Shown here: positions 19,378 to 63,433 of the stretch, in pieces
How positions within the stretch are numbered: position 1 is the stretch's first letter
How the letters are laid out: each line of letters begins with the position of its first letter
Sequence record: MN781580
Source: Shigella phage KRT47
Length of the DNA stretch: 64,000 bases
Direction: 5' to 3' (one strand)
Notes under the pieces: model-generated
Database searches by the model: none
What the model was told of the DNA's origin: nothing
Seen by the model: the letters and a program-made list of their open reading frames with translations, nothing else
Translations under genes and position numbers: made by a program

Positions 19378-21146
19378 AAAAGCCACAAGAAATGCAAACG
19401 ATGCGTAGAAAAGTTATTTCAGATAATAAACCAACACAGGAAGCGGCTAAATCCGCTTCCAACACTTTATCTGGACTTAATGATATATCTACGAAATTGG
19501 ATGATGCTCAAGCTGCTTCTGAATTAATAGCTCAAACTGTCGAAGAAAAATCGAATGAAATAGTTGGAGCAATTGGTAACGTAGAAAGCGCAGTGAGTGA
19601 TACTACTGCTGGTTCTGAGTTAATTGCTGAAACTGTCGAAATTGGCAACAATATTAATAAAGAAATCGGTGAATCACTCGGAAGCAAATTAGATAAATTA
19701 ACAAGTTTACTAGAGCAAAAAATCCAGACAGCTGGAATTCAACAAACAGGAACTAGTTTAGCTACGGTTGAAAGCGCTATTCCTGTTAAAGTTGTTGAGG
19801 ACGATACAGCTGAATCTGTGGGTCCTTTATTACCGGCTCCTGAAGCAGTTAATAATGATCCTGATGCTGATTTTTTCCCTACCCCTCAGCCAGTTGAACC
19901 TAAACAAGAATCGCCAGAAGAAAAACAGAAAAAAGACGCATTTAACTTAAAATTATCTCAAGCTTTAGATAAATTAACAAAGACTGTTGATTTCGGATTT
20001 AAGAAATCTATTTCAATTACTGATAAAATATCAAGCATGCTATTTAAGTATACAGTCAGTGCTGCTATTGAAGCTGCTAAAATGACTGCAATGATATTGG
20101 CTGTTGTTGTCGGAATAGACCTGCTGATGGTTCATTTCAAATATTGGTCAGATAAATTTTCACAGGCTTGGGATTTGTTTAGTACAGACTTTACTAAATT
20201 CTCTAGCGAAACCGGAACATGGGGCCCTTTATTACAGAGCATCTTTAGTTCTATTGATAAAATTAAGAAGCTGTGGGAAGCTGGAGATTGGGGCGGATTG
20301 ACAGCAGCTATTGTAGAAGGGCTTGGAAAGGTTCTTTTTAATTTAGGAGAGCTTATTCAACTTGGAATGGCTAAATTATCTGCTGCAATTCTTCGAGTCA
20401 TTCCTGGCATGAAAGACACTGCTGACGAAGTAGAAGGAAGAGCACTAGAAAATTTCCAAAACACTACAAATGCTTCTCTTAGCAAAGAAGACCAAGAAAA
20501 AGTTGCAAATTATCAATATAAAAGAATGAATGGCGATCTTGGTCCAATAGCAAAAGGACTAGACAAAATTGCGAACTGGAAAACTCGTGCATCTAACTGG
20601 ATTCGTGGTGTTGATAATAAAGAAGCACTAACGACTGATGAAGAGAGAGCAGAGGAAGAAGAAAAATTAAAGCAACTTTCTCCGGAGGAAGCTAAAATTG
20701 CTTTAATGAAAGCTAATGAAGCTCGCGCTGCTATGAATCGTTTTGATGAATATGCTAATTCAGCTGATATGAGTAAAGACTCAACGGTTAAATCAGTTGA
20801 AGCTGCCTATGAAGACCTTAAAAAACGGATGGATGACCCGGATTTAAATAATTCACCGGCAGTTAAAAAAGAACTTGCTGCTAGATTTTCTAAAATTGAT
20901 GCTACTTATCAAGAGCTCAAGAAAAATCAGCCTAATGCCAAACCTGAAACTTCTGCTAAATCACCAGAAGCAAAACAAGTCCAGGTAATAGAAAAGAACA
21001 AAGCACAACAAGCTCCTGTTCAACAGGCATCTCCTTCGATCAATAATACTAATAATGTTATTAAGAAAAATACTGTCGTTCATAATATGACACCTGTCAC
21101 AAGCACAACTGCTCCTGGTGTATTTGATGCGACTGGGGTTAATTAA
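19374..21146 (+). CDS. 29: baseplate hub subunit / tail length determinator gp29
   Basis: 590 aa, T4 gp29 length; coiled-coil-rich. Confidence 0.92.
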   Translation: MKKPQEMQTMRRKVISDNKPTQEAAKSASNTLSGLNDISTKLDDAQAASELIAQTVEEKSNEIVGAIGNVESAVSDTTAGSELIAETVEIGNNINKEIGESLGSKLDKLTSLLEQKIQTAGIQQTGTSLATVESAIPVKVVEDDTAESVGPLLPAPEAVNNDPDADFFPTPQPVEPKQESPEEKQKKDAFNLKLSQALDKLTKTVDFGFKKSISITDKISSMLFKYTVSAAIEAAKMTAMILAVVVGIDLLMVHFKYWSDKFSQAWDLFSTDFTKFSSETGTWGPLLQSIFSSIDKIKKLWEAGDWGGLTAAIVEGLGKVLFNLGELIQLGMAKLSAAILRVIPGMKDTADEVEGRALENFQNTTNASLSKEDQEKVANYQYKRMNGDLGPIAKGLDKIANWKTRASNWIRGVDNKEALTTDEERAEEEEKLKQLSPEEAKIALMKANEARAAMNRFDEYANSADMSKDSTVKSVEAAYEDLKKRMDDPDLNNSPAVKKELAARFSKIDATYQELKKNQPNAKPETSAKSPEAKQVQVIEKNKAQQAPVQQASPSINNTNNVIKKNTVVHNMTPVTSTTAPGVFDATGVN

Positions 21147-23214: not shown

Positions 23215-23218
23215 CAAT

Positions 23219-23236
23219 GGGGACCGAAAGGTCCCC
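23219..23236. terminator. bidirectional terminator hairpin GGGGACC-GAAA-GGTCCCC between gene 54 and minus-strand ORF
   Basis: 7-bp stem with GNRA loop, T run downstream on + strand, between convergent genes. Confidence 0.65.
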
Positions 23237-23242
23237 ATATTT

Positions 23243-23533
23243 TTATTTACGGAATGAAATAAAAGCAGCAACTGAAGCAACTAAACTGTCTTCAATATAA
23301 ACTTCAATTTTTACCGGAGCTTCTGACTCAAATTTACCTGTTACTACACCTTGGAAAATGCTTTCAGTCTGCTGTGGCTTTGAAAAATTTTCAGAAGGAA
23401 AAATTCCGAACTTTTTATCTGTTCCAAAAATTTTGATAAATTCATCATAAACTGCTTCATTAAAAGCATTATCAGCAGGAATAACGCCTTCAACTACAAG
23501 TTCTTGACCTAAAAAGCGCAAAGAAGATTTCAT
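23243..23533 (-). CDS. hypothetical protein (alt-distal small ORF)
   Basis: 96 aa ORF, ATG at 23531-23533 with GAGGA SD inside the 54-bp repeat. Confidence 0.6.
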   Translation of the reverse strand: MKSSLRFLGQELVVEGVIPADNAFNEAVYDEFIKIFGTDKKFGIFPSENFSKPQQTESIFQGVVTGKFESEAPVKIEVYIEDSLVASVAAFISFRK

Positions 23534-23540
23534 TTTGTGT

Positions 23541-23594
23541 TCCTCATGTTATGTCAGTAAGACTACTGTAACACAACACGAGGGACTTGTAAAC
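23541..23594 (-). repeat. 54-bp perfect direct repeat, copy A (early promoter plus translation-initiation cassette)
   Basis: Identical to 39407..39460; minus-strand sense GTTTAC-N18-TACAGT then GAGGA SD. Confidence 0.85.
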
Positions 23595-25651
23595 TACATC
23601 TTGAACTTTTTAGACATTCCGTTGATGTTAACCAAAGAAGCCAAGATTTGAGAAACTTCGTTTTCCTCTTCTTTTGATTCTTCTACAAGGAATTGATTAA
23701 ACCCAGCCATTGGACGAACTTCACCAGTTTCCATTAGATGATCGCCATCATATACCGATTCTTCTAATTGTTCAGAAGGAGGAACGATTGTGCCTTCGAT
23801 TAGATACTTATTATAAGCAGTTTCTTTCATCATGTACGTGCTAACTTTATTAATCTTCAGCAAAATTCCACGCGGTAGAATAACTTCAGCTTCTGATGGA
23901 AATCCTGATAAATGACCTGGAACGATAACTTTAATTCGCTCAGCTCCTTTTATTACCATACCTACGCTAGTTTCAGCATCTTCATTCGCATAAGCAGAAT
24001 GACTGCCCATATGCATTAAATCTTCAGCATCAACAGAACCTTCTCCTTCACCAGAAAATACTGCACCGGAATCATCTAGAGTCATATAGTTTTTACCATG
24101 CTCACCGAAGATATTTGGTTTAAGCGATGTTGATACGAAGTTCTTGAAATAAAACATTTTATTTTCAATATTATGACGTAAAGTTTTAAAGGTAACTTCT
24201 TGTCCACGATAAAGCGTAGTTCCTGGAGGAAGAACTGATCCTTTGGCAAAGGCAGAATCCAGCGTCTCGATGTGTTTAATAGCTCGTTCCATGTATTCTT
24301 CACGGGTAGAATCTGGTTTACCCAAGAGGAACGAGTTCATTTCAACATATGAATCTGCACAATAATCTTCAATTACATCAGACTCAGCCTGAGTTAATCC
24401 TTTTGGAGTTACTTCGGTGCTTGCATATTCATATGCCTGAGCAGCAGATTCATTAATCAATTTATAAATGCCATTCATGACAAATTGAATAATAGCTACC
24501 TTTTCGTCTGGCGTGGCTTTAGAACCTTTAACTAAATCATTGATAATTTTCTTAATAACATCAAAGCTATTAGAAATATTAATGTCAGCGAGATCGCTCA
24601 AAATTTTATCGGTTTTATAATCAAAGAATTCTTTATTCTTTAAATATTCTTGAGAACCTTGATATGTTATATCGCTCTGCAGCTTGATAGATGGATCACG
24701 TAAACGTGCATGGGCCAATGCAATATGATTTCGGAAGCTTTCTAGTTCATAATCGTTAGATTTAAAACGAGAAGCACTTCTCATACCACCGATAGCTCCT
24801 TTGCTGAAGTTTGAACCAATCTGGATAACGCCAGAGTTCATTGGTCCTTCTGCTTTATATACCGGAACTTTAGATTCAAACTCTTGATATTTCTTAGCGG
24901 CGAAGCTATCACCCTGAAGTGAAGCATCGACAGTAGAATATTGAGCTTGTGCTGCCAATCGACGACTAATTTTAGTTTTCTGAATAACAGCTTGATCCGT
25001 GCGCTTATCATTTTCTAGAGCAATAGAAGCGGCAACAGCAACAGCTTTAGGAACAGCATTACCTGTTTTAACGTCTACATAAACATCACCAACCTTTGAT
25101 TCAACTTTTGTGAATAACTCAGTTGAAATAGGAGGTACACCTGGAATGTCTTCTAAATTAGCATTTTTACGATAAACCATAATATATGCATACTTTTTAT
25201 CATAGTCCCAGATTTCCTTTAAAAGAACATATCGACCTGCTCCTTTAGTACGTACTAAACGGTCAGCAATAACTTGCATTTGACGAGCAGCGCCATTTGT
25301 TTTACTTTTTAGTACGCGGAATAGGCATGCGTCAATTTTATACTGTTTCATTGTTTGAAGAGCAGTATCAAAAACCGCATTAATGACACCAATTGGATTT
25401 CCACCCAAGTTTTTAAGTTTAACTAATGATAGTTTCTCATTAACACCTATCATTACGATATGCATCATTTTATCGCCTGGCTTAACGTTTTTATTTGTAT
25501 CACCGCCAGAGGTGTATGTACAAAATCTAAATCCAGGAAGCACACTTTCTTCACCGGCTTGAATAGCAAAAATTTGAGGTATTTTATGCTTAGGATTTAA
25601 GTTAACAACCGGCGCCGAAGCGCCGTCAAATAATTCTGTAATAAGTTCCAT
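23594..25651 (-). CDS. Alt-family ADP-ribosyltransferase paralogue
   Basis: 685 aa; N-terminus MELITELFD and C-terminal R / STS / ExE motifs (YRGQ, FVSTSL, EAEVILPRG) shared with the adjacent paralogue; middle region diverged. Confidence 0.8.
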   Translation of the reverse strand: MELITELFDGASAPVVNLNPKHKIPQIFAIQAGEESVLPGFRFCTYTSGGDTNKNVKPGDKMMHIVMIGVNEKLSLVKLKNLGGNPIGVINAVFDTALQTMKQYKIDACLFRVLKSKTNGAARQMQVIADRLVRTKGAGRYVLLKEIWDYDKKYAYIMVYRKNANLEDIPGVPPISTELFTKVESKVGDVYVDVKTGNAVPKAVAVAASIALENDKRTDQAVIQKTKISRRLAAQAQYSTVDASLQGDSFAAKKYQEFESKVPVYKAEGPMNSGVIQIGSNFSKGAIGGMRSASRFKSNDYELESFRNHIALAHARLRDPSIKLQSDITYQGSQEYLKNKEFFDYKTDKILSDLADINISNSFDVIKKIINDLVKGSKATPDEKVAIIQFVMNGIYKLINESAAQAYEYASTEVTPKGLTQAESDVIEDYCADSYVEMNSFLLGKPDSTREEYMERAIKHIETLDSAFAKGSVLPPGTTLYRGQEVTFKTLRHNIENKMFYFKNFVSTSLKPNIFGEHGKNYMTLDDSGAVFSGEGEGSVDAEDLMHMGSHSAYANEDAETSVGMVIKGAERIKVIVPGHLSGFPSEAEVILPRGILLKINKVSTYMMKETAYNKYLIEGTIVPPSEQLEESVYDGDHLMETGEVRPMAGFNQFLVEESKEEENEVSQILASLVNINGMSKKFKM

Positions 25652-25654
25652 GAT

Positions 25655-27751
25655 TTATCCTTGAACGAACTTGTAAGGCATGTTTGCAATATCTATGCAA
25701 GACGCAATAATTCCAAGAGATGATTCTACTTTTTGTTTAACATTTGATGAAACAAATGATGCAAAGTCAACTCTGTCTTCTATTTCAATATCACCTGTCA
25801 TTGCAACTACTTCACCAGTTTCCATTAGACGGTCACCGTCATAAATTACTGATTCGGTGAGTTCTTCCGTAGTCATAACTTCAGCTTGAATGAGTTTTGT
25901 ATTATTAGATGTTGTTCCGTCATTATTAGAAGCATCAGTTATTTTATTAACTTTGACCATCAATCCTCGTGGTAGAATAACTTCAGCTTCTGTTGCTATT
26001 CCGAGACTTCCTGGATATACAACATTAACTTTATGAGCTCCATCAATTGCCCATCCTATTTGAACTTTAACGTATTCAGGATTTTCTTTATACGCTCTTA
26101 TTTCGTTTGGATTAATAGTTATTCCTTCTTCATTTTTATCAACTGTCAATTCATTACGAGCTTCTGGTTCTAAAAGACCAATACCAGCATGTGTAATTCC
26201 AAAACGTCCAAAAATGATAGGAGTTAAAGAAGTAGATACAAAATTTCTGAAATAGAACACTTTATTTTTAACTAGTGCTTCGTATATAGGAGCAGTCATG
26301 CTTTGAGCACGATAAACTGTAATGCCTTCTGGTATACGGTCACCATTTTCAAAAGCTGAATCTAAGTTATTTATAGCAGATTCAATTTCTTTTTCACTCA
26401 TTACATCATATCGTTCTGGATTGTAACGACCCAAAAGAAGATTATTGATGTCAGTATATCCTGAACCACAATACTCTCTAATGCCGCGCTTTTGTGATGG
26501 AGTATATTTAGAACCATCACGGGCAATAGTAATATCAATCATTGGACCTGCACCAATTCCAGAAAAGCTGTAAATCATTCTTTTGAGGAATTTAGTTTTT
26601 GCTGCGTTCCAGGAATTTTTAGTCATTTCTTCCCAGACTTCATCTGGCTGTCCTTTACGGGTTTTATTATGTTTATCAAGCCAATTATCTTTATATTCTT
26701 CAAAGAATTGATTAACAGCTGCTGCGTATTTCTCTAAACATTTTATTGAAGTAGTTGGTTCATTTTTAATCGCATTAAGAATTACATCTTTAATTTTTTC
26801 AGAAACTTCATTAACCTCACTTTTTGAAAAGAATTTATAGTCATAATGAAGTTCATCTGCAGTTCCTTCAGCAATAATTTTTGCTGCTTTAGTTTTAGAA
26901 GCCAATGAATTAATTCCAAGTTTCATTTCTTCTGCTTCGGGAATTAAAGGAGCGGTAGCAGGTTTATTGAAATTAGCTGCGGTAGATTCATACTTCTGGA
27001 ATAATTCACTTTCAAATCTAGAAGATTCTAATGATTGACTTTGTGCAATTGCTCTACGGGAAATTTTAACTTTAACGATTACAGCTTGGTCAGAACGTTT
27101 ATCATTTTCTTGCGCAATAGATGCAGCAATTGCCTCATTTTTAGTTACTTGAGCTCCAGTATCTTTATTGATATAAACATCACCGACCTTCGATTCAACT
27201 TTAGTAAAGAGCTCGGTACTAATTTCCGGAACTCCTGGAATGTCTTCTAGTGATACATTTTTGCGATGTATAAGAATATATGCATACTTTTTATCGTAAT
27301 CCCAGAGTTCCTTAAGAAGGACGTATCTGCCACCTGAACGACTGCGGATAAGTCTATCAGCAATAAGTTGAATTTGACGAGCTTGACCAGCAGTTTTAGA
27401 CTTAAGAATACGGAGCATACAGGCATCAATTTTATACTGACGCATCGTTTGCATTGCAACAGTAAAAACTGAATTGATGTAATTAATTGGGCTTGGACCG
27501 AGACCTTTTAATTTAGCAATTGAACCTTTAGCAGTTAATGTAAAAGGAACAATATGCATCATTTTATCGCCCATCTTTAAATCGCGATTAGTATCACCTC
27601 CAGATGTATAAGTACATAAACGAAAACCTGGTTGTTCAATTGCGTCATCAACATGAACTGAAAAAATTTGCGGTATTTTCTTCTTTGGATTTAAGTTTGT
27701 AATCGGAAGAGTAGTATCTTCGTCAAATAATTCTGTAATGAGTTCCATCAT
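25655..27751 (-). CDS. alt: Alt ADP-ribosyltransferase (head-packaged, RNA polymerase-modifying)
   Basis: 698 aa; R / STS / ExE motifs (YRAQ, FVSTSL, EAEVILPRG); lies on the ligase side as T4 alt does; which copy is orthologous to T4 alt is not certain. Confidence 0.75.
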   Translation of the reverse strand: MMELITELFDEDTTLPITNLNPKKKIPQIFSVHVDDAIEQPGFRLCTYTSGGDTNRDLKMGDKMMHIVPFTLTAKGSIAKLKGLGPSPINYINSVFTVAMQTMRQYKIDACMLRILKSKTAGQARQIQLIADRLIRSRSGGRYVLLKELWDYDKKYAYILIHRKNVSLEDIPGVPEISTELFTKVESKVGDVYINKDTGAQVTKNEAIAASIAQENDKRSDQAVIVKVKISRRAIAQSQSLESSRFESELFQKYESTAANFNKPATAPLIPEAEEMKLGINSLASKTKAAKIIAEGTADELHYDYKFFSKSEVNEVSEKIKDVILNAIKNEPTTSIKCLEKYAAAVNQFFEEYKDNWLDKHNKTRKGQPDEVWEEMTKNSWNAAKTKFLKRMIYSFSGIGAGPMIDITIARDGSKYTPSQKRGIREYCGSGYTDINNLLLGRYNPERYDVMSEKEIESAINNLDSAFENGDRIPEGITVYRAQSMTAPIYEALVKNKVFYFRNFVSTSLTPIIFGRFGITHAGIGLLEPEARNELTVDKNEEGITINPNEIRAYKENPEYVKVQIGWAIDGAHKVNVVYPGSLGIATEAEVILPRGLMVKVNKITDASNNDGTTSNNTKLIQAEVMTTEELTESVIYDGDRLMETGEVVAMTGDIEIEDRVDFASFVSSNVKQKVESSLGIIASCIDIANMPYKFVQG

Positions 27752-27771: not shown

Positions 27772-27779
27772 TATTTATA
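27772..27779 (-). promoter_or_regulatory. T4-type late promoter TATAAATA (minus strand) upstream of alt
   Basis: Reverse complement of TATTTATA, about 20 nt upstream of alt start. Confidence 0.55.
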
Positions 27780-27800: not shown

Positions 27801-27989
27801 TTAATAATCTATTGGTAAGAGAGTACGATATATTTCAAACTTTGGACCTTTTTCATAGGCATCAAATGTTTCTGTGAATTTATTATAAGCATATGCATCT
27901 ATAAATTCAATCATAATTTGTGATACAGAAGTAGAAACATCTCCACCTTCTTTTTGAGCAACGACAATTGTTTCTAAGTAAGCTTTCAT
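27801..27989 (-). CDS. hypothetical small protein between ligase and alt
   Basis: 62 aa ORF, start overlaps ligase stop. Confidence 0.5.
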   Translation of the reverse strand: MKAYLETIVVAQKEGGDVSTSVSQIMIEFIDAYAYNKFTETFDAYEKGPKFEIYRTLLPIDY

Positions 27990-29449
27990 AGACCAGTTAC
28001 CTCATGAAAATCACCAAATACATCCTCGAATGTATTAGCTTTAGTTTTATCTTCACGTAAACGAATCGCAATTGGAAGAAATAATTTTACGTAATCAGTG
28101 CGGCCATCAGATTTTAGCCAACCGTTGCATTCGCACTCTAGAATTTTTCCAATATAATAATTTTGGTTTTCCATAATGCGAGTACGGTCAAGTTCATGTG
28201 ATTTTACACCGGCTTTATCTTTTAAGCCTGAACCAGCATTTACTTTAATTTTTCCACACTCTGATTCAAGAATAAATCCACCTGCTTTAGTAGGGTCTTT
28301 ACGGTGAGGATAAATTCCTACAATTTTTAAATCAACATCAATTACTTCTTTAAATTTATAGAGATTTTTTGAACGAGCATTTTCCCACAATCCATCGGTA
28401 TTTTTGAGAATAATACCTTCAAGACCTTGGTCAATATACTTTTTATAAATTACCTTAGCTTCATCTAGGTTATTTACTACCTGGTTTTCAATTAAAATTA
28501 CTTTATCATATCCTGATGTCATTTGTTCTAGTTTAGAAAAACGTACATCATATTTTAAACGAAACGCCGGAAGACCGTATATTTCTACCAACGGGACATA
28601 ATCCCAGACCTGAAACTTCATGCATTTGGCTTCTTTTTCGGAAATGGTTCCTTTTAAGGATTTATTGGCGATTCCATTAGAAGCAGTACGAGATTCCGCT
28701 ACTTCGGCGAATTCTTTAGCTTTACTAATTTCAGGATAAGCATCAAAAAGAAAATCTAGGCCTTCTGGTTCCTTTTTAACTTGCTCATGGTATACCAATT
28801 CGCCATCAATTAACACACCTTCTGGATGAATCTGGCGGGCTTCAGCAGTCATTTTGATTAATTCTTCCTTAAGAAGATCTAATCCTAGATATTCATTACC
28901 AGCTCGTGATAAAAGACGAACATCATCTAATTCATCGCCTCGGACTTCAGCAAAACACCGGGCTCCATCTGCTTTTAACTGCGCAAAGGCTGGAAACTTG
29001 ATATTCTTACTAATGCCCTTTTCATCATAAGAACTTGCCAGCATTTGAGGTTGTTCAGGAATTAAACCTGGCCAAACTTTGTTTGCAATAGATACTGAAG
29101 CACCGCATTCAAGGTCTCGCATCATCACTCGACGCAAAACTTCAACATCATCCTTTTTACCATCAGTGATATATCCAGTTAATTCCTCAATTGCAGCATT
29201 TCCAGTCAATTTCCGAGTAGCTAACGTGAATTCAATGAAATCAAGCATATCGGTAATGGTCAGCATTCCAAAACTCTGGGTAGCAATACCAGGTTTAGGC
29301 CATTTCTTGATATAATACTGTAACCCACGAGAATAAGTCAGACGATATACTCGTTTAAGCAATTCATTATCTTTATTCTTTTCAAGAATTGCTTGCTTCT
29401 GCTTAGTTGATCCAATAGATGCTATTTCATTCAGAATTTTAAGAATCAT
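27986..29449 (-). CDS. 30: ATP-dependent DNA ligase gp30
   Basis: 487 aa; recognised as near-identical to T4 DNA ligase; adenylation motif KADGAR. Confidence 0.97.
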   Translation of the reverse strand: MILKILNEIASIGSTKQKQAILEKNKDNELLKRVYRLTYSRGLQYYIKKWPKPGIATQSFGMLTITDMLDFIEFTLATRKLTGNAAIEELTGYITDGKKDDVEVLRRVMMRDLECGASVSIANKVWPGLIPEQPQMLASSYDEKGISKNIKFPAFAQLKADGARCFAEVRGDELDDVRLLSRAGNEYLGLDLLKEELIKMTAEARQIHPEGVLIDGELVYHEQVKKEPEGLDFLFDAYPEISKAKEFAEVAESRTASNGIANKSLKGTISEKEAKCMKFQVWDYVPLVEIYGLPAFRLKYDVRFSKLEQMTSGYDKVILIENQVVNNLDEAKVIYKKYIDQGLEGIILKNTDGLWENARSKNLYKFKEVIDVDLKIVGIYPHRKDPTKAGGFILESECGKIKVNAGSGLKDKAGVKSHELDRTRIMENQNYYIGKILECECNGWLKSDGRTDYVKLFLPIAIRLREDKTKANTFEDVFGDFHEVTGL

Positions 29450-32163: not shown

Positions 32164-32496
32164 TTATTTTACTACTTTCCAATGCTGCATGTCAAGTTTA
32201 CCAACTTTTTTCATCTTCTCAATTAAGCGTTCGGCACGTTGGCGAGCTGTAACATAATACCATTCACCTAATTCATTTTGTTCAATTTTTCCAACGATTA
32301 CTGTATTCAATTCATAAATCCAACCAGTAAAGAAATTATGAACTTGAATTGTAAAGGTGAAATCTGTTCCCATACCTTCTGTTGTTTCTACTTCAATAAT
32401 ATCACCTTCAACTGCCATTAAGAACCACATAGTTTCATCATATTTACCGTTGAAGCATTTAGTTTTAACTGCAGCGTTCAGATTAATCGTTTTCAT
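32164..32496 (-). CDS. hypothetical protein
   Basis: 110 aa ORF with AAGGAG SD, bounded by hairpin+promoter cassette upstream and promoter downstream. Confidence 0.6.
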   Translation of the reverse strand: MKTINLNAAVKTKCFNGKYDETMWFLMAVEGDIIEVETTEGMGTDFTFTIQVHNFFTGWIYELNTVIVGKIEQNELGEWYYVTARQRAERLIEKMKKVGKLDMQHWKVVK

Positions 32497-32523
32497 TTTA
32501 TTCTCCTTTGTTTGTGTAAGATA

Positions 32524-32553
32524 ATACTATCACAAAGGAACCATACTGTAAAC
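32524..32553 (-). promoter_or_regulatory. T4-type early promoter (GTTTAC-N18-TAGTAT)
   Basis: Minus-strand sense -35 GTTTAC at 32548-32553, -10 TAGTAT at 32524-32529. Confidence 0.55.
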
Positions 32554-38555: not shown

Positions 38556-38905
38556 TTAGAAAGGTCCTGGATGTCTTCTGCGAACTTGTTGAAGGAGTTG
38601 TTGATTTGTTTTTCAACCAATCCTGGCTTATGAGCCACCACATCCGCCTTCTTTGCGTCTTTGCGCAGTTTTTCATTTTCACGCTCAATAGCAGCAATTG
38701 CCTCACGATTTTTATTATTCATCGCATCAATATAATTATACTGAATTCGCAAATTATTTAATGCTAAAGCGTTTTCATTGGCCGTTTTTGTAATTTCTAC
38801 GACAGACGTTTCTAATCTTTCAATTTTATTTTTTAAAATTAAAGAAGTTCCGCCCAATGCAATTACAATTAATAGCAAGCCTGCTGTCGTATTACTTAAT
38901 TGCAT
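38552..38905 (-). CDS. i-spanin (inner-membrane lysis component)
   Basis: 117 aa; N-terminal TM helix GLLLIVIALGG then coiled-coil-like region; matches T4 pseT.3 position. Confidence 0.7.
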   Translation of the reverse strand: MQLSNTTAGLLLIVIALGGTSLILKNKIERLETSVVEITKTANENALALNNLRIQYNYIDAMNNKNREAIAAIERENEKLRKDAKKADVVAHKPGLVEKQINNSFNKFAEDIQDLSK

Positions 38906-39402
38906 AAAGTTTTAATAACCTCTATAATATCGTCTTGAGAAAGACCGTTAATTAAAATATGATGTTCAGCCGGAGATTTAGAAATTTTAAAGCATGCCTC
39001 AACATCTTCTGCCATATCCGATGCGCTACGATTTGGATTACTAATTCCAAGACGATGTTTTCCCGTTAAAGGATTAACGATGATATAGCATTTACAGTTG
39101 TTAATATGAACATTAGGTTGAGTCTGATTAATGAACACATCACAATCATATTTCGCAAGCTGATTTTCTAAAAAGACTTTCATCTCCTCAACCGCATCAG
39201 GAAGCATATCACGGGCTTGCTCAAGACGACGATTTCGATATTCTTTAATGGTCGTTTTCCGCTTGACTTGCTTAGCTAAATCTTTCTTAAGATCGGTGAT
39301 ATATCCAACTCGACGATTTCCTTTAAATACAGAAATCCCATCTGTAGTATCACCGTATGCTTCAACGACCATTTCAGTAGTAATAAGCTGTAAATCCATC
39401 AT
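38896..39402 (-). CDS. alc: Alc (inhibitor of host transcription)
   Basis: 168 aa (T4 Alc about 167 aa); position between spanins and rnlA. Confidence 0.7.
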   Translation of the reverse strand: MMDLQLITTEMVVEAYGDTTDGISVFKGNRRVGYITDLKKDLAKQVKRKTTIKEYRNRRLEQARDMLPDAVEEMKVFLENQLAKYDCDVFINQTQPNVHINNCKCYIIVNPLTGKHRLGISNPNRSASDMAEDVEACFKISKSPAEHHILINGLSQDDIIEVIKTLCN

Positions 39403-39406
39403 AAAG

Positions 39407-39460
39407 TCCTCATGTTATGTCAGTAAGACTACTGTAACACAACACGAGGGACTTGTAAAC
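39407..39460 (-). repeat. 54-bp perfect direct repeat, copy B (early promoter plus translation-initiation cassette)
   Basis: Identical to 23541..23594; lies between rnlA stop and alc start. Confidence 0.85.
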
Positions 39461-39463
39461 AGC

Positions 39464-41051
<1,588 letters not shown>

Positions 41052-48546: not shown

Positions 48547-48576
48547 ATAGTACCACAGTCCTTGTGGTATGTAAAC
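48547..48576 (-). promoter_or_regulatory. T4-type early promoter (GTTTAC-N18-TACTAT)
   Basis: Minus sense -35 at 48571-48576, -10 at 48547-48552; about 30 nt downstream of gene 32 terminator. Confidence 0.55.
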
Positions 48577-54900: not shown

Positions 54901-55791
54901 TCTAATCACTTTTATTCTCAACGTAATAAAGCTGGGAATATAACGTTTAGTATCAATGGTACTGTAATGCCAATAAATGTTAATGCTTCGGGTTCTTTGA
55001 ATGCGAACGGCGTTGCAACATTTGGTAGTTCAGTTACAGCCAATGGCGAATTCATCAGCAAGTCTGCAAATGCTTTCAGAGCAATAAATGGCGACTATGG
55101 ATTCTTTATTCGCAATGATGCTGCTAACACCTATTTTATGCTTACTGCATCGGGTGATCAGACTGGCGGATTTAATGGATTACGTCCTTTAGCTATTAAC
55201 AATACATCTGGCCAAGTAACGATTGGTGAAAGCTTAATCATTGCCAAAGGTGCTACTATAAATTCAGGTGGTTTAACTGTTAACTCGAGAATTCGTTCTC
55301 AGGGCACTAAAACATCTGACTTATATACCCGTGCGCCAACATCTGATACTGTAGGATTCTGGTCAATCGATATTAATGATTCAGCTACTTATAACCAGTT
55401 CCCAGGTTATTTTAAAATGGTTGAAAAAACTAATGAAGTGACTGGGCTTCCGTACTTAGAACGTGGCGAAGAAGTTAAATCTCCTGGTACATTGACTCAG
55501 TTTGGTAACACACTTGATTCGCTTTACCAAGATTGGATTACTTATCCAACGACTCCAGAAGCACGTACCACTCGCTGGACACGTACATGGCAGAAAACCA
55601 AAAACTCTTGGTCAAGTTTTGTTCAGGTATTTGATGGAGGTAACCCTCCTCAGCCGTCTGATATCGGTGCTTTACCATCTGATAATGCTACAATGGGGAA
55701 TCTTACTATTCGTGATTTCTTACGAATTGGTAATGTTCGCATTATTCCTGACCCAGTGAATAAAACGGTTAAATTTGAATGGGTTGAATAA
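51922..55791 (+). CDS. 34: long tail fibre proximal subunit gp34
   Basis: 1289 aa, T4 gp34 length; recurring ITPKKL...TETRRG...IATQ repeat motifs. Confidence 0.95.
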   Translation: MAEIKRKFRAEDGLDAGGDKIINVALADRTVGTDGVNVDYLIQENTVQQYDPTRGYLKDFVIIYDNRFWAAINDIPKPAGAFNSGRWRALRTDANWITVSSGSYQLKSGEAISVNTAAGNDITFTLPSTPIDGDTIILQDIGGKPGVNQVLIVAPVQSIVNFRGEQVRSVLMTHPKSQLVLIFSNRLWQMYVADYSREAVVVTPANTYQAQSNDFIVRRFTSAAPINIKLPRFANHGDIINFVDLDKLNPLYHTIVTTYDETTSVQEDGTHSIEGRTSIDGFLMFDDNEKLWRLFDGDSKARLRIITTNSNIRPNEEVMVFGANNGTTQTIELQLPTNISVGDTVKISMNYMRKGQTVKIKAAGEDKIASSVQLLQFPKRSEYPPEAEWVTVQELVFNGETNYVPVLQLAYIEDSDGKYWVVQQNVPTVERVDSLNDSTRARLGVIALATQAQANVDLENSPQKELAITPETLANRTATETRRGIARIATTAQVNQNTTFSFADDIIITPKKLNERTATETRRGVAEIATQQETNAGTDDTTIITPKKLQARQGSESLSGIVTFVSTAGATPASSRELNGTNVYNKNTNNLVVSPKALDQYKATPTQQGAVILAVESEVIAGQSQEGWANAVVTPETLHKKTSTDGRIGLIEIATQSEVNTGTDYTRAVTPKTLNDRKATESLSGIAELATQVEFDAGVDDTRISTPLKIKTRFNSTDRTSVVALSGLVESGTLWDHYTLNILEANETQRGTLRVATQVEAAAGTLDNVLITPKKLLGTKSTEAQEGVIKVATQSETVAGTSANTAVSPKNLKWIVQSEPTWAATTAIRGFVKTSSGSITFVGNDTVGSTQSLELYEKNSYAVSPYELNRVLANYLPLKAKAADTNLLDGLDSSQFIRRDIAQTVNGSLTLTQQTNLSAPLVSSSTATFGGSVSANSTLTISNTGTATRLIFEKGPQTGTNPVQTMTIRVWGNQFGGGSDTTRSTVFEVGDETSNHFYSQRNKAGNITFSINGTVMPINVNASGSLNANGVATFGSSVTANGEFISKSANAFRAINGDYGFFIRNDAANTYFMLTASGDQTGGFNGLRPLAINNTSGQVTIGESLIIAKGATINSGGLTVNSRIRSQGTKTSDLYTRAPTSDTVGFWSIDINDSATYNQFPGYFKMVEKTNEVTGLPYLERGEEVKSPGTLTQFGNTLDSLYQDWITYPTTPEARTTRWTRTWQKTKNSWSSFVQVFDGGNPPQPSDIGALPSDNATMGNLTIRDFLRIGNVRIIPDPVNKTVKFEWVE

Positions 55792-63280: not shown

Positions 63281-63433
63281 TCAATTAGTTGACTTTGTTA
63301 TAATATCATCAGACGCTTGATTTGTAAACTGGTCTGTGTTATTTTCTTCAAAAATTTTTTCTACGAATTCCTTGAACGACTTACGTTCCTGAGCTACATT
63401 ATGCTCGATTACTTTTTCAAGATTATAACTCAT
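63281..63433 (-). CDS. small hypothetical ORF between asiA and arn-like gene
   Basis: 50 aa hand-translated ORF (MSYNLEKVIEHNVAQERK...), ATGA overlap with upstream gene stop; not in track. Confidence 0.35.
   Translation of the reverse strand: MSYNLEKVIEHNVAQERKSFKEFVEKIFEENNTDQFTNQASDDIITKSTN

Follow-up and report, generated by a model that had tools for sequence, protein, structure and literature searches.

A duplicated 54-bp promoter-early stem-loop before alc and alt.-3 in a T4-like phage as a candidate insulator against upstream transcription

In the 64 000-nt stretch of Shigella phage KRT47 DNA analyzed here (sequence record MN781580; called the window below), a 54-bp sequence, TCCTCATGTTATGTCAGTAAGACTACTGTAACACAACACGAGGGACTTGTAAAC, occurs in two exact copies, at 23541–23594 and 39407–39460 (plus-strand coordinates). 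One copy stands upstream of the homolog of T4 alt.-3 and the other upstream of alc. Each carries an early-type promoter, a leader and a ribosome-binding site (RBS), and the RNA of the cassette is predicted to fold into a long hairpin whose 3′ arm ends on the Shine–Dalgarno (SD) sequence. We regard it as probable that the cassette, a promoter-early stem-loop (PeSL), works as an insulator of alc and alt.-3 from upstream transcription. The pair as such is an ancient, conserved element of a known type in a heavily studied phage group, and its interest lies in the insulator reading: if it is true, 54 bp combine promoter, leader, RBS and a switch that silences the gene on RNA from other promoters.

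RESULTS

An exact repeat upstream of two unrelated genes

The window derives from a Tequatrovirus (T4-like phage) and is 98–99.7% identical to many T4-like phages. A sequence-only reading of it had claimed a perfect direct repeat of 54 bp, which was borne out without a mismatch. The 54 bp are the maximal exact repeat, with different neighbouring bases on both sides of the two copies, which are separated by 15.9 kb; no third copy at up to three mismatches was found in the window, and the number of chance matches expected is 0. In gene sense (minus strand) the sequence reads GTTTACAAGTCCCTCGTGTTGTGTTACAGTAGTCTTACTGACATAACATGAGGA. The arrangement GTTTAC-N18-TACAGT followed by GAGGA, also claimed beforehand, is indeed present on this strand and equals a TTTACA-N17-TACAGT promoter with TG at the extended −10 position. 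T4 and most relatives have TATAGT as the −10 hexamer, and TATAAT stands in this place in some alt.-3 copies. At the site of copy 2, Yersinia phage fPS-65 is annotated with a ‘predicted early promoter’.

Both copies fit tightly between flanking genes. Copy 1 forms the whole gap from the stop codon of a second alt-type gene to 7 nt before the ATG of alt.-3, and the TAG stop of the upstream gene (23594–23596) overlaps the first G of its GTTTAC. Copy 2 begins 3 nt past the TAA stop of rnlA (39464–39466), and the alc ATG, taken as the first ATG (39402), lies 4 nt beyond it, so that the start codons are as near as had been stated. An early-type sigma-70 promoter with an RBS before two unrelated genes is likewise supported; BLASTP aligned nothing between the downstream proteins, which Pfam places in DUF5498 (copy 1) and ALC (copy 2).

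Other regulatory classes were considered for the cassette and rejected. Its SD, GAGGA, lacks the GGAG or GGAU of a RegB target. A MotA (middle) promoter was dismissed as no TGCTT box was seen by eye and the RNA of both genes goes up in motA-amber infections (see below). No late promoter of the form TATAAATA was found in or near either cassette.

The cassette RNA is predicted to fold into a hairpin that takes in the SD

Folded in gene sense, the cassette RNA forms an 18-bp hairpin with a 2-nt bulge, CCUCGUGUUGUGU-UA-CAGUA [GUCU] UACUG-ACAUAACAUGAGG, with a free energy (dG) of −24.3/−25.7 kcal/mol and a z score of −4.8/−5.3 against dinucleotide shuffles. The hairpin is seen in the minimum free energy (MFE) as well as in the centroid structure, it stays when each copy is folded within a 141-nt context, and its stem begins 11–17 nt past the upstream stop codon. 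The pairing of CCUCGUG with CAUGAGG that had been proposed to hide the SD does occur, although as part of this far larger structure, which runs through spacer, −10 hexamer and leader. The proposal itself stands in part: hiding of the SD is predicted in RNA read through from upstream and not in the cassette’s own mRNA, from which the 5′ arm should be absent.

This restriction follows from the position of the promoter. Because the −10 hexamer sits inside the 5′ arm, any sigma-70 start should lie within the loop or the 3′ arm, and the predicted one, about 7 nt past the −10, lies right behind the loop among the first bases of the 3′ arm. Transcripts of the cassette’s own promoter should therefore lack the 5′ arm, and the hairpin can mask the SD solely in transcripts that run in from the gene upstream. 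The whole 5′ arm is still left out of the RNA when the predicted start is shifted by 3 nt in either direction. Read-through RNA has its SD fully paired in MFE and centroid structures, and the probability that GAGG is unpaired is only 0.001–0.003. For RNA from the cassette’s own promoter, folded from three assumed starts (cassette positions 34, 37 and 40), this probability is 0.13–0.19 before alt.-3 and 0.42–0.56 before alc, and these RNAs fold at only about 0 to −2 kcal/mol.

No U-run follows the hairpin, which is succeeded by AACACAAAAUG in copy 1 and by CUUUAUGAUG in copy 2. An intrinsic (Rho-independent) terminator was accordingly rejected; neither copy appears in the terminator scan, which does call the site at 23217–23238.

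The pairing is conserved within and across genera

Among 19 distinct Tequatrovirus copies of the cassette 98% of the stem cells are paired. The stem changes observed include exchanges between C-G, U·G and U-A at pairs 15–50 and 27–40, and between G·U and A-U at pair 16–49. Through its G·U pairs the sense RNA is 4–9 kcal/mol more stable than the antisense RNA in this genus, which speaks for the transcript in sense orientation, and against a palindrome in the DNA, as the target of selection.

Stronger evidence that the pairing is selected came from a comparison of genera. An SD-masking design before alc was also found in Karamvirus, Dhakavirus, Kagamiyamavirus, Roskildevirus and two Klebsiella phage lineages, and the gap between rnlA and alc measures 55–65 bp in the sampled Tevenvirinae genera. 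The alc cassettes of these genera have in common a (G)TTTACA −35 element, a 5′ arm in the spacer that starts with CCUC or CUCC, a −10 element at the top of the hairpin and a 3′ arm that ends on the SD, while their stems (9–15 bp) differ in sequence from genus to genus. MAFFT combined with RNAalifold was unsuited to this set, as the arms shift relative to the −35 element, and we used an alignment anchored on the anti-SD/SD core instead. In this alignment compensatory double changes were observed in 10 of 13 pairs and 84.6% of the positions pair, compared to 36–51% when the partner is slid, pair counts that the anchoring biases toward structure. None of 500 shuffles reached the covariation score.

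Published T4 expression data

In time-resolved omics data on T4, alc and alt.-3 fall into the early class at the level of RNA as well as protein; rnlA is early as RNA and late as protein, and alt is late (PMC9697503). We further used published T4 RNA-seq values, given as reads/nt at 5 min for six conditions (Table S1 of PMC6024815). From alt.-2 to alt.-3 the density rises 1.6–3.4-fold in all six conditions. The values for alc (12.9–25.6 reads/nt) and rnlA (3.9–28.7 reads/nt) are uncoupled, with alc/rnlA ratios ranging from 0.61 to 6.5. In motA-amber infections rnlA goes down whereas alc and alt.-3 go up, as expected of MotA-independent early promoters directly upstream, and the published RNA-seq thus supports such promoters immediately before both genes (PMC6024815).

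The drop of rnlA (T4 136340–137464) in motA-amber infections amounts to 21 to 16, 14 to 3.9 and 29 to 10 reads/nt in three host backgrounds (PMC6024815), which indicates that a substantial share of gene 63 transcription is MotA-dependent (middle); alc does not follow it. In the accessible part of a T4 dRNA-seq preprint, alc is among the transcripts picked for qPCR confirmation of NAD captureSeq enrichment (bioRxiv 10.1101/2024.04.04.588121).

Distribution and history of the two copies

The identity of the copies had been taken as a sign of recent copying, and this part of the sequence-only reading did not survive comparison with other genomes. By blastn with a word size of 11 the cassette was found in 997 places in 499 Tequatrovirus records, i.e. 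two per genome and at the same junctions in essentially every record of the genus, T4 included, where the copies are 53/54 identical to each other and both read TATAGT in place of the TACAGT of the window. Megablast with its 28-nt word was misleading in this respect (150 records, mostly with one copy), because the central TATAGT/TACAGT mismatch splits the query. Few phages have two copies that are identical at 54/54 and both read TACAGT: no more than 8 of the 499 records gave two megablast places for this version. An assembly artefact is ruled out because these independent phage genome records have the cassette at the same two sites. Scans of IMG/VR and of one metagenome yielded few true Tequatrovirus contigs, and the 73 metagenome loci recovered are mostly chance matches to an over-degenerate pattern.

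In the 12 genomes from which both copies were recovered, the consensus at alc is identical to that at alt.-3, and certain variants recur at one site only: an AGAC loop at alc, and TATAATAATC and TTCCTTATG at alt.-3. Concerted evolution is unsupported in this set, since the mean distance between paralogs within a genome is 2.67, compared to 3.03 between genomes (permutation P = 0.09). Judged from this distribution, the duplication is old and genus-wide and not recent, the two copies appear to evolve mostly as orthologous lineages, and purifying selection on promoter, hairpin and SD is the best explanation of why they are alike. This phage carries the rarer TACAGT twice, for which an occasional conversion or recombination event may be responsible.

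At the junction of alt and alt.-3, Dhakavirus, Mosigvirus and Kanagawavirus have an early promoter in the same position, with the same overlap of TAG and GTTTAC and without the alc-type hairpin. Because these three genera lack that hairpin at alt.-3, the simplest history is one in which the alc cassette is ancestral and its interior replaced that of an existing alt.-3 early promoter in the ancestor of Tequatrovirus. A swap between the −35 and SD consensus elements shared by the two promoters would explain why the repeat ends exactly there.

Hairpins at other early promoters of the window and of T4

The two copies are not the only promoters of this kind. Nine early-type promoters of the window stand directly before genes, and at 7 of them there is a significant hairpin whose 5′ arm is encoded in the spacer; hairpin over promoter is thus a general design in this genome. 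The SD is masked at three of them, namely at both repeat copies and in front of the gp30.8 homolog (promoter at about 32552). Across the early regions of T4 a hairpin with z ≤ −2 was found at 17 of 33 early-type promoters, and the SD is fully paired with the spacer at at least 8 of the 33 (motB.2, nrdC.8, regB, denV, 30.8, ndd.4, alc and alt.-3). Anti-SD tetramers occur in 9 of the 33 T4 spacers, about 5-fold more than the 1.85 expected (P = 6e-5), while SD-sense tetramers showed no significant enrichment in the same spacers.

The gp30.8 cassette (32497–32553, minus strand) reads GTTTACA-N17-TAGTAT; its spacer sequence UUCCUUUGU pairs with ACAAAGGAG (dG −12 kcal/mol, z −2.1). Its arms are unrelated to those of the 54-mer, the ORF downstream (32164–32496, 110 aa) belongs to Pfam Phage_30_8, and T4 has the same design at 130309. 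The minus-strand −35 elements at 48575, 47849, 36134 and 32160 are likewise accompanied by strong hairpins (dG between −15 and −19 kcal/mol, z between −3.2 and −5.0), with the 5′ arm in the spacer, the 3′ arm over −10/+1 and the SD outside. The early-type promoters at 63328 and 51875 have no hairpin.

Paralogous early promoters were also found in T4 (NC_000866). The pair at 55383 and 146874 is identical over the first 39 nt, spacer included, and the pair at 20611 (dmd) and 57989 (mobD.2) has a common 15-bp hairpin with compensatory changes (C-G to U-A twice, and wobble to Watson–Crick). The 54-bp repeat is the best conserved of several such pairs. A small hairpin that lies wholly within the spacer (CCACAAGGAYGUGG and variants) was observed at 48575 in the window, at 2457, 50972 and 167085 in T4, and also at alt.-3 of Dhakavirus and alc of Mosigvirus, that is, at different loci in different genera; it looks like a second family of early-promoter spacers.

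Genomic context

The features of the two loci are listed in Table 1. The second Alt-type protein, of 685 aa, is encoded directly after alt proper. Late read-through RNA that enters copy 1 probably originates at a match to the late-promoter consensus immediately before the first alt gene. Downstream of the alt genes no terminator-like site precedes the one between alt.-3 and gene 54, and late alt RNA has to pass through copy 1 and alt.-3 to get there; at the matching place phage DalCa has a terminator annotated on both strands.

Two full tandem alt-type genes are present here and in T2, DalCa and EP01, while T4 has one and an alt.-1/alt.-2 remnant. When window positions 23594–27751 are compared with T4 123065–125502, the remnant is seen to keep the last residues of the second gene (…KKFKM*), from which it follows that T4 lost the interior of the second alt paralog beside the cassette.

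Table 1. Coordinates of the two cassettes and of neighbouring features in the window
Feature	Position	Strand	Basis or remark
Cassette copy 1 (PeSL before alt.-3)	23541–23594	−	Exact repeat; site filled in T4 and other Tequatrovirus
Cassette copy 2 (PeSL before alc)	39407–39460	−	Exact repeat; homologous T4 site
−35 hexamer TTTACA	23588–23593 (copy 1); 39454–39459 (copy 2)	−	Promoter scan; 17-nt spacer, TG present
−10 hexamer TACAGT, preceded by TGn	23565–23570 (copy 1); 39431–39436 (copy 2)	−	Promoter scan
Predicted transcription start, A 7 nt past −10	23558 (copy 1); 39424 (copy 2)	−	Inferred from sigma-70 spacing
Hairpin 5′ arm, cassette positions 12–31	23564–23583 (copy 1); 39430–39449 (copy 2)	−	Spacer and −10; starts with anti-SD CCUC
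Hairpin 3′ arm, cassette positions 36–53	23542–23559 (copy 1); 39408–39425 (copy 2)	−	Leader and SD GAGG
SD GAGGA, last 5 nt of cassette	23541–23545 (copy 1); 39407–39411 (copy 2)	−	
alt.-3 homolog, 96 aa, served by copy 1	23243–23533	−	Pfam DUF5498
alc, 168 aa, inhibitor of host transcription, served by copy 2	38896–39402	−	Pfam ALC
rnlA (gene 63, gp63), 386 aa	39464–40624	−	Source of RNA that runs into copy 2
Two tandem Alt-type ADP-ribosyltransferase genes	23594–25651 (685 aa); 25655–27751 (698 aa, alt proper)	−	
Late-promoter consensus TATAAATA	27772–27779	−	Motif match only; just upstream of first alt gene
Bidirectional intrinsic terminator between alt.-3 and gene 54	23217–23238	both	Terminator scan

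DISCUSSION

Proposed mode of action

According to the insulator reading, the cassette holds a strong sigma-70 promoter of the T4 early type. The 5′ arm is written into the spacer between −35 and −10, which would be the sole freely variable part of this promoter, and it begins with the anti-SD sequence CCUC. Host RNA polymerase at the cassette’s own promoter would start in or after the loop and produce an unstructured mRNA with the 3′ arm only, which would be translated early. RNA derived from upstream, probably late alt mRNA at copy 1 and MotA-dependent rnlA mRNA at copy 2, would hold both arms and form the 18-bp hairpin, in which the SD would be sequestered; part of this read-through RNA may in addition be terminated or degraded at the stem-loop. 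In this way alc and alt.-3 would be expressed only from their own early promoters, i.e. early.

Several observations weigh against this reading. Within Tequatrovirus the covariation is not significant, the variation being too low (93 of 500 shuffles reach the score), and 4 of about 12 distinct stem substitutions break a pair. The significant score across genera comes from the anchored alignment, with the bias in pair counts noted above. No SD-masking hairpin was found at alc in two Mosigvirus phages and in Acinetobacter phage Ac42: the former have the in-spacer type of hairpin in its place, and in Ac42 alc comes after pseT.2 and lacks a promoter. At alc of Aeromonas phage 31 the SD pairs with sequence at or after the −10 element and not with the spacer. 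As the hairpin is missing at alc in these phages (in phage 31, in this form), it must be dispensable. Moreover, the SD lies outside some of the other early-promoter hairpins of the window (47849, 36134 and 32160) and outside many of those in T4, which points to a function of the stem-loop that is independent of SD masking. In wild-type T4 the density of rnlA (21–29 reads/nt) is higher than that of alc (13–21 reads/nt; PMC6024815), which suggests that part of the upstream RNA stops at the stem-loop or is less stable beyond it, and fits attenuation or decay as well as, or instead of, masking. Finally, in the accessible text on PeSLs one RB49 stem-loop is reported to have cut downstream lacZ expression like rrnB T1 (PMC2839356).

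Alternative explanations

The last three points are those on which a pure terminator or attenuator would build. Here the PeSL, possibly also a recombination module, would act on transcription alone, and the overlap of its 3′ arm with the SD would be incidental, the leader being short and the SD its only G-rich stretch. This is the interpretation given in the accessible parts of the PeSL papers, where the effect of the RB49 stem-loop on lacZ is its experimental support (PMC2839356, PMC4122927). We consider it unlikely, if far from negligible. The cassette has no U-tract and neither copy looked like a terminator in the scan. Hairpins that avoid the SD are evidently possible, yet in seven genera the alc 3′ arm finishes on the SD, although the arm sequences have turned over completely, and the 5-fold enrichment of anti-SD tetramers in early-promoter spacers would be left without a reason. 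Termination or attenuation and SD masking are not mutually exclusive and can coexist. The exact 54/54 identity raises a different question, namely whether recent gene conversion or recombination, between the cassettes or with another phage, has made the copies alike. TACAGT stands in both copies of the window, although it is common at alc and rare at alt.-3; phage GBLB0003 also has it at both sites, as may up to 8 of the 499 records, and PeSLs are reported as recombination substrates in the text available to us (PMC2839356, PMC4122927). Since the consensus sequences of the two sites are identical, a single shared substitution would suffice, however. The paralog distances within genomes are not significantly below those between genomes, and the AGAC loop at alc and the two alt.-3 variants persist across genomes. 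On balance we judge a recent conversion improbable.

Two further explanations were considered. The inverted repeat is centred near −10/+1, and the shut-off of this promoter class is ‘not completely understood’ (PMC3014915), which would suit an operator for a dimeric early-promoter regulator or a cruciform that tunes promoter opening. Three G·U pairs of the consensus stem are mismatches in DNA, however, and C·A on the other strand, the stem holds a 2-nt bulge, and the sense RNA is the more stable one by the margin given above; what is kept across genera and T4 promoters is complementarity and not the sequence of the arms, the opposite of a protein operator. We therefore find a DNA-level element barely credible. 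Translational coupling would have ribosomes on the polycistronic RNA melt the stem and so permit translation of alc and alt.-3. The upstream stop codons do adjoin the cassette, with the TAG overlapping position 1 of copy 1 and the TAA 3 nt upstream of copy 2. By an estimate from ribosome geometry, however, a ribosome that terminates there would get no farther than the base of the stem and would not touch the anti-SD/SD pairs. In T4, moreover, the timing of alt (late) differs from that of the Alt.-3 protein (early; PMC9697503), and coupling, too, seems very improbable. We continue to favour the insulator reading.

Possible scope and meaning

We put forward more tentatively, and with some doubt, that those PeSLs whose spacer encodes an anti-SD, a subclass seen at no fewer than 8 of the 33 T4 early promoters, are a conserved, genome-wide translational insulator in Tevenvirinae that distinguishes RNAs by their promoter of origin. 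If this were true, a quarter of the genes next to early promoters (alc, regB, denV, motB.2, ndd.4 and others) would be kept early in spite of middle and late transcripts, and it would be explained why RegB cuts GGAG SD sites in early RNA while those in middle and late RNA resist. A GGAG SD, the RegB cleavage motif, was found at 5 of the 8 T4 SD-masking cassettes (regB 62796, denV 65412, nrdC.8 53942, 30.8 130309 and ndd.4 166806). SD masking in read-through RNA could, as a candidate role, contribute to the discrimination of RegB between early and later transcripts. Translation control by promoter of origin was not found in the accessible text of the PeSL papers or T4 reviews. If confirmed, the insulator reading would extend the PeSL concept to the level of translation and offer a simple account of how early genes stay early inside middle and late transcription units; synthetic biology would gain a very small insulator module.

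Comparison with known systems

PeSLs were first found in RB49 and phi1 and later in PST/T4 and nt-1/KVP40, according to the accessible parts of the two papers, whose authors read the stem-loop as a terminator or attenuator and the whole element as a substrate for recombination (Arbiol et al. 2010, PMC2839356; Comeau et al. 2014, PMC4122927). On sequence grounds the element described here is a PeSL, since every sequence-level trait of this already described class was found in it: a sigma-70 early promoter, a stable stem-loop between −35 and −10 or over −10, an SD and start codon at the 3′ end, a tight position between flanking ORFs, and a motif repeated in the genome beside variable genes, copy 1 bordering the variable alt region. 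Relative to the consensus given for PST/T4, TTTACW-N17-TAYWAT (PMC4122927), the −10 hexamer TACAGT matches TAYWAT at 5 of 6 positions, with G for A at position 5. The cassette differs in that its 3′ arm consists of leader and SD and that its pairing with an anti-SD in the spacer is kept by covariation. Sequestration of the SD is not raised in the PeSL text available to us, and in that of the 2010 paper the words ‘ribosome’ and ‘translation’ do not occur (PMC2839356, PMC4122927). As to recombination, the DNA ligase gene (487-aa ORF, 27986–29449) lies between the two copies, and the T4 map has genes 30, 31 and cd there. These genes are essential. Shuffling by mini-circles or deletions between the copies is therefore unlikely to be viable.

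Masking of an RBS by a helix in long transcripts is well known from T4 e, soc, 49 and I-TevI, where the SD and/or the AUG is held in a helix in RNA from upstream promoters and a late (gp55) promoter in or next to the helix yields RNA without the 5′ arm, which is translated late (Uzan & Miller 2010, PMC3014915). Our computed structures likewise place the SD in a helix on read-through RNA, and the inner promoter is predicted to skip the 5′ arm. Here, however, the inner promoter is an early sigma-70 promoter, so that the predicted timing is inverted (translation early only), and for this reason we did not file the cassette in that family. Neither alc nor alt.-3 is among the RBS-masking examples listed in the T4 review, in which ‘alc’ occurs 0 times (PMC3014915).

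The cassette promoter also resembles the T4 ‘uber’ early promoters (UP/−35/TGn/−10) in its GTTTAC −35 element, GT-rich extended −10 region (TGTGTTA…) and strong sigma-70 elements; the review that describes them is silent on spacer structure (Hinton 2010, PMC2988021). The −10 hexamer here is TACAGT (TATAGT in T4) and not TAYWAT. A similar logic is said to operate in IS10 and IS50, as worked out in the Kleckner and Reznikoff labs: transcripts from outside reportedly fold back on the RBS of the transposase, whereas those from its own promoter start inside the pairing and are translatable. Without any sequence relation to the cassette, and in another genetic system, this fold-back inhibition serves to insulate the gene from external transcription.

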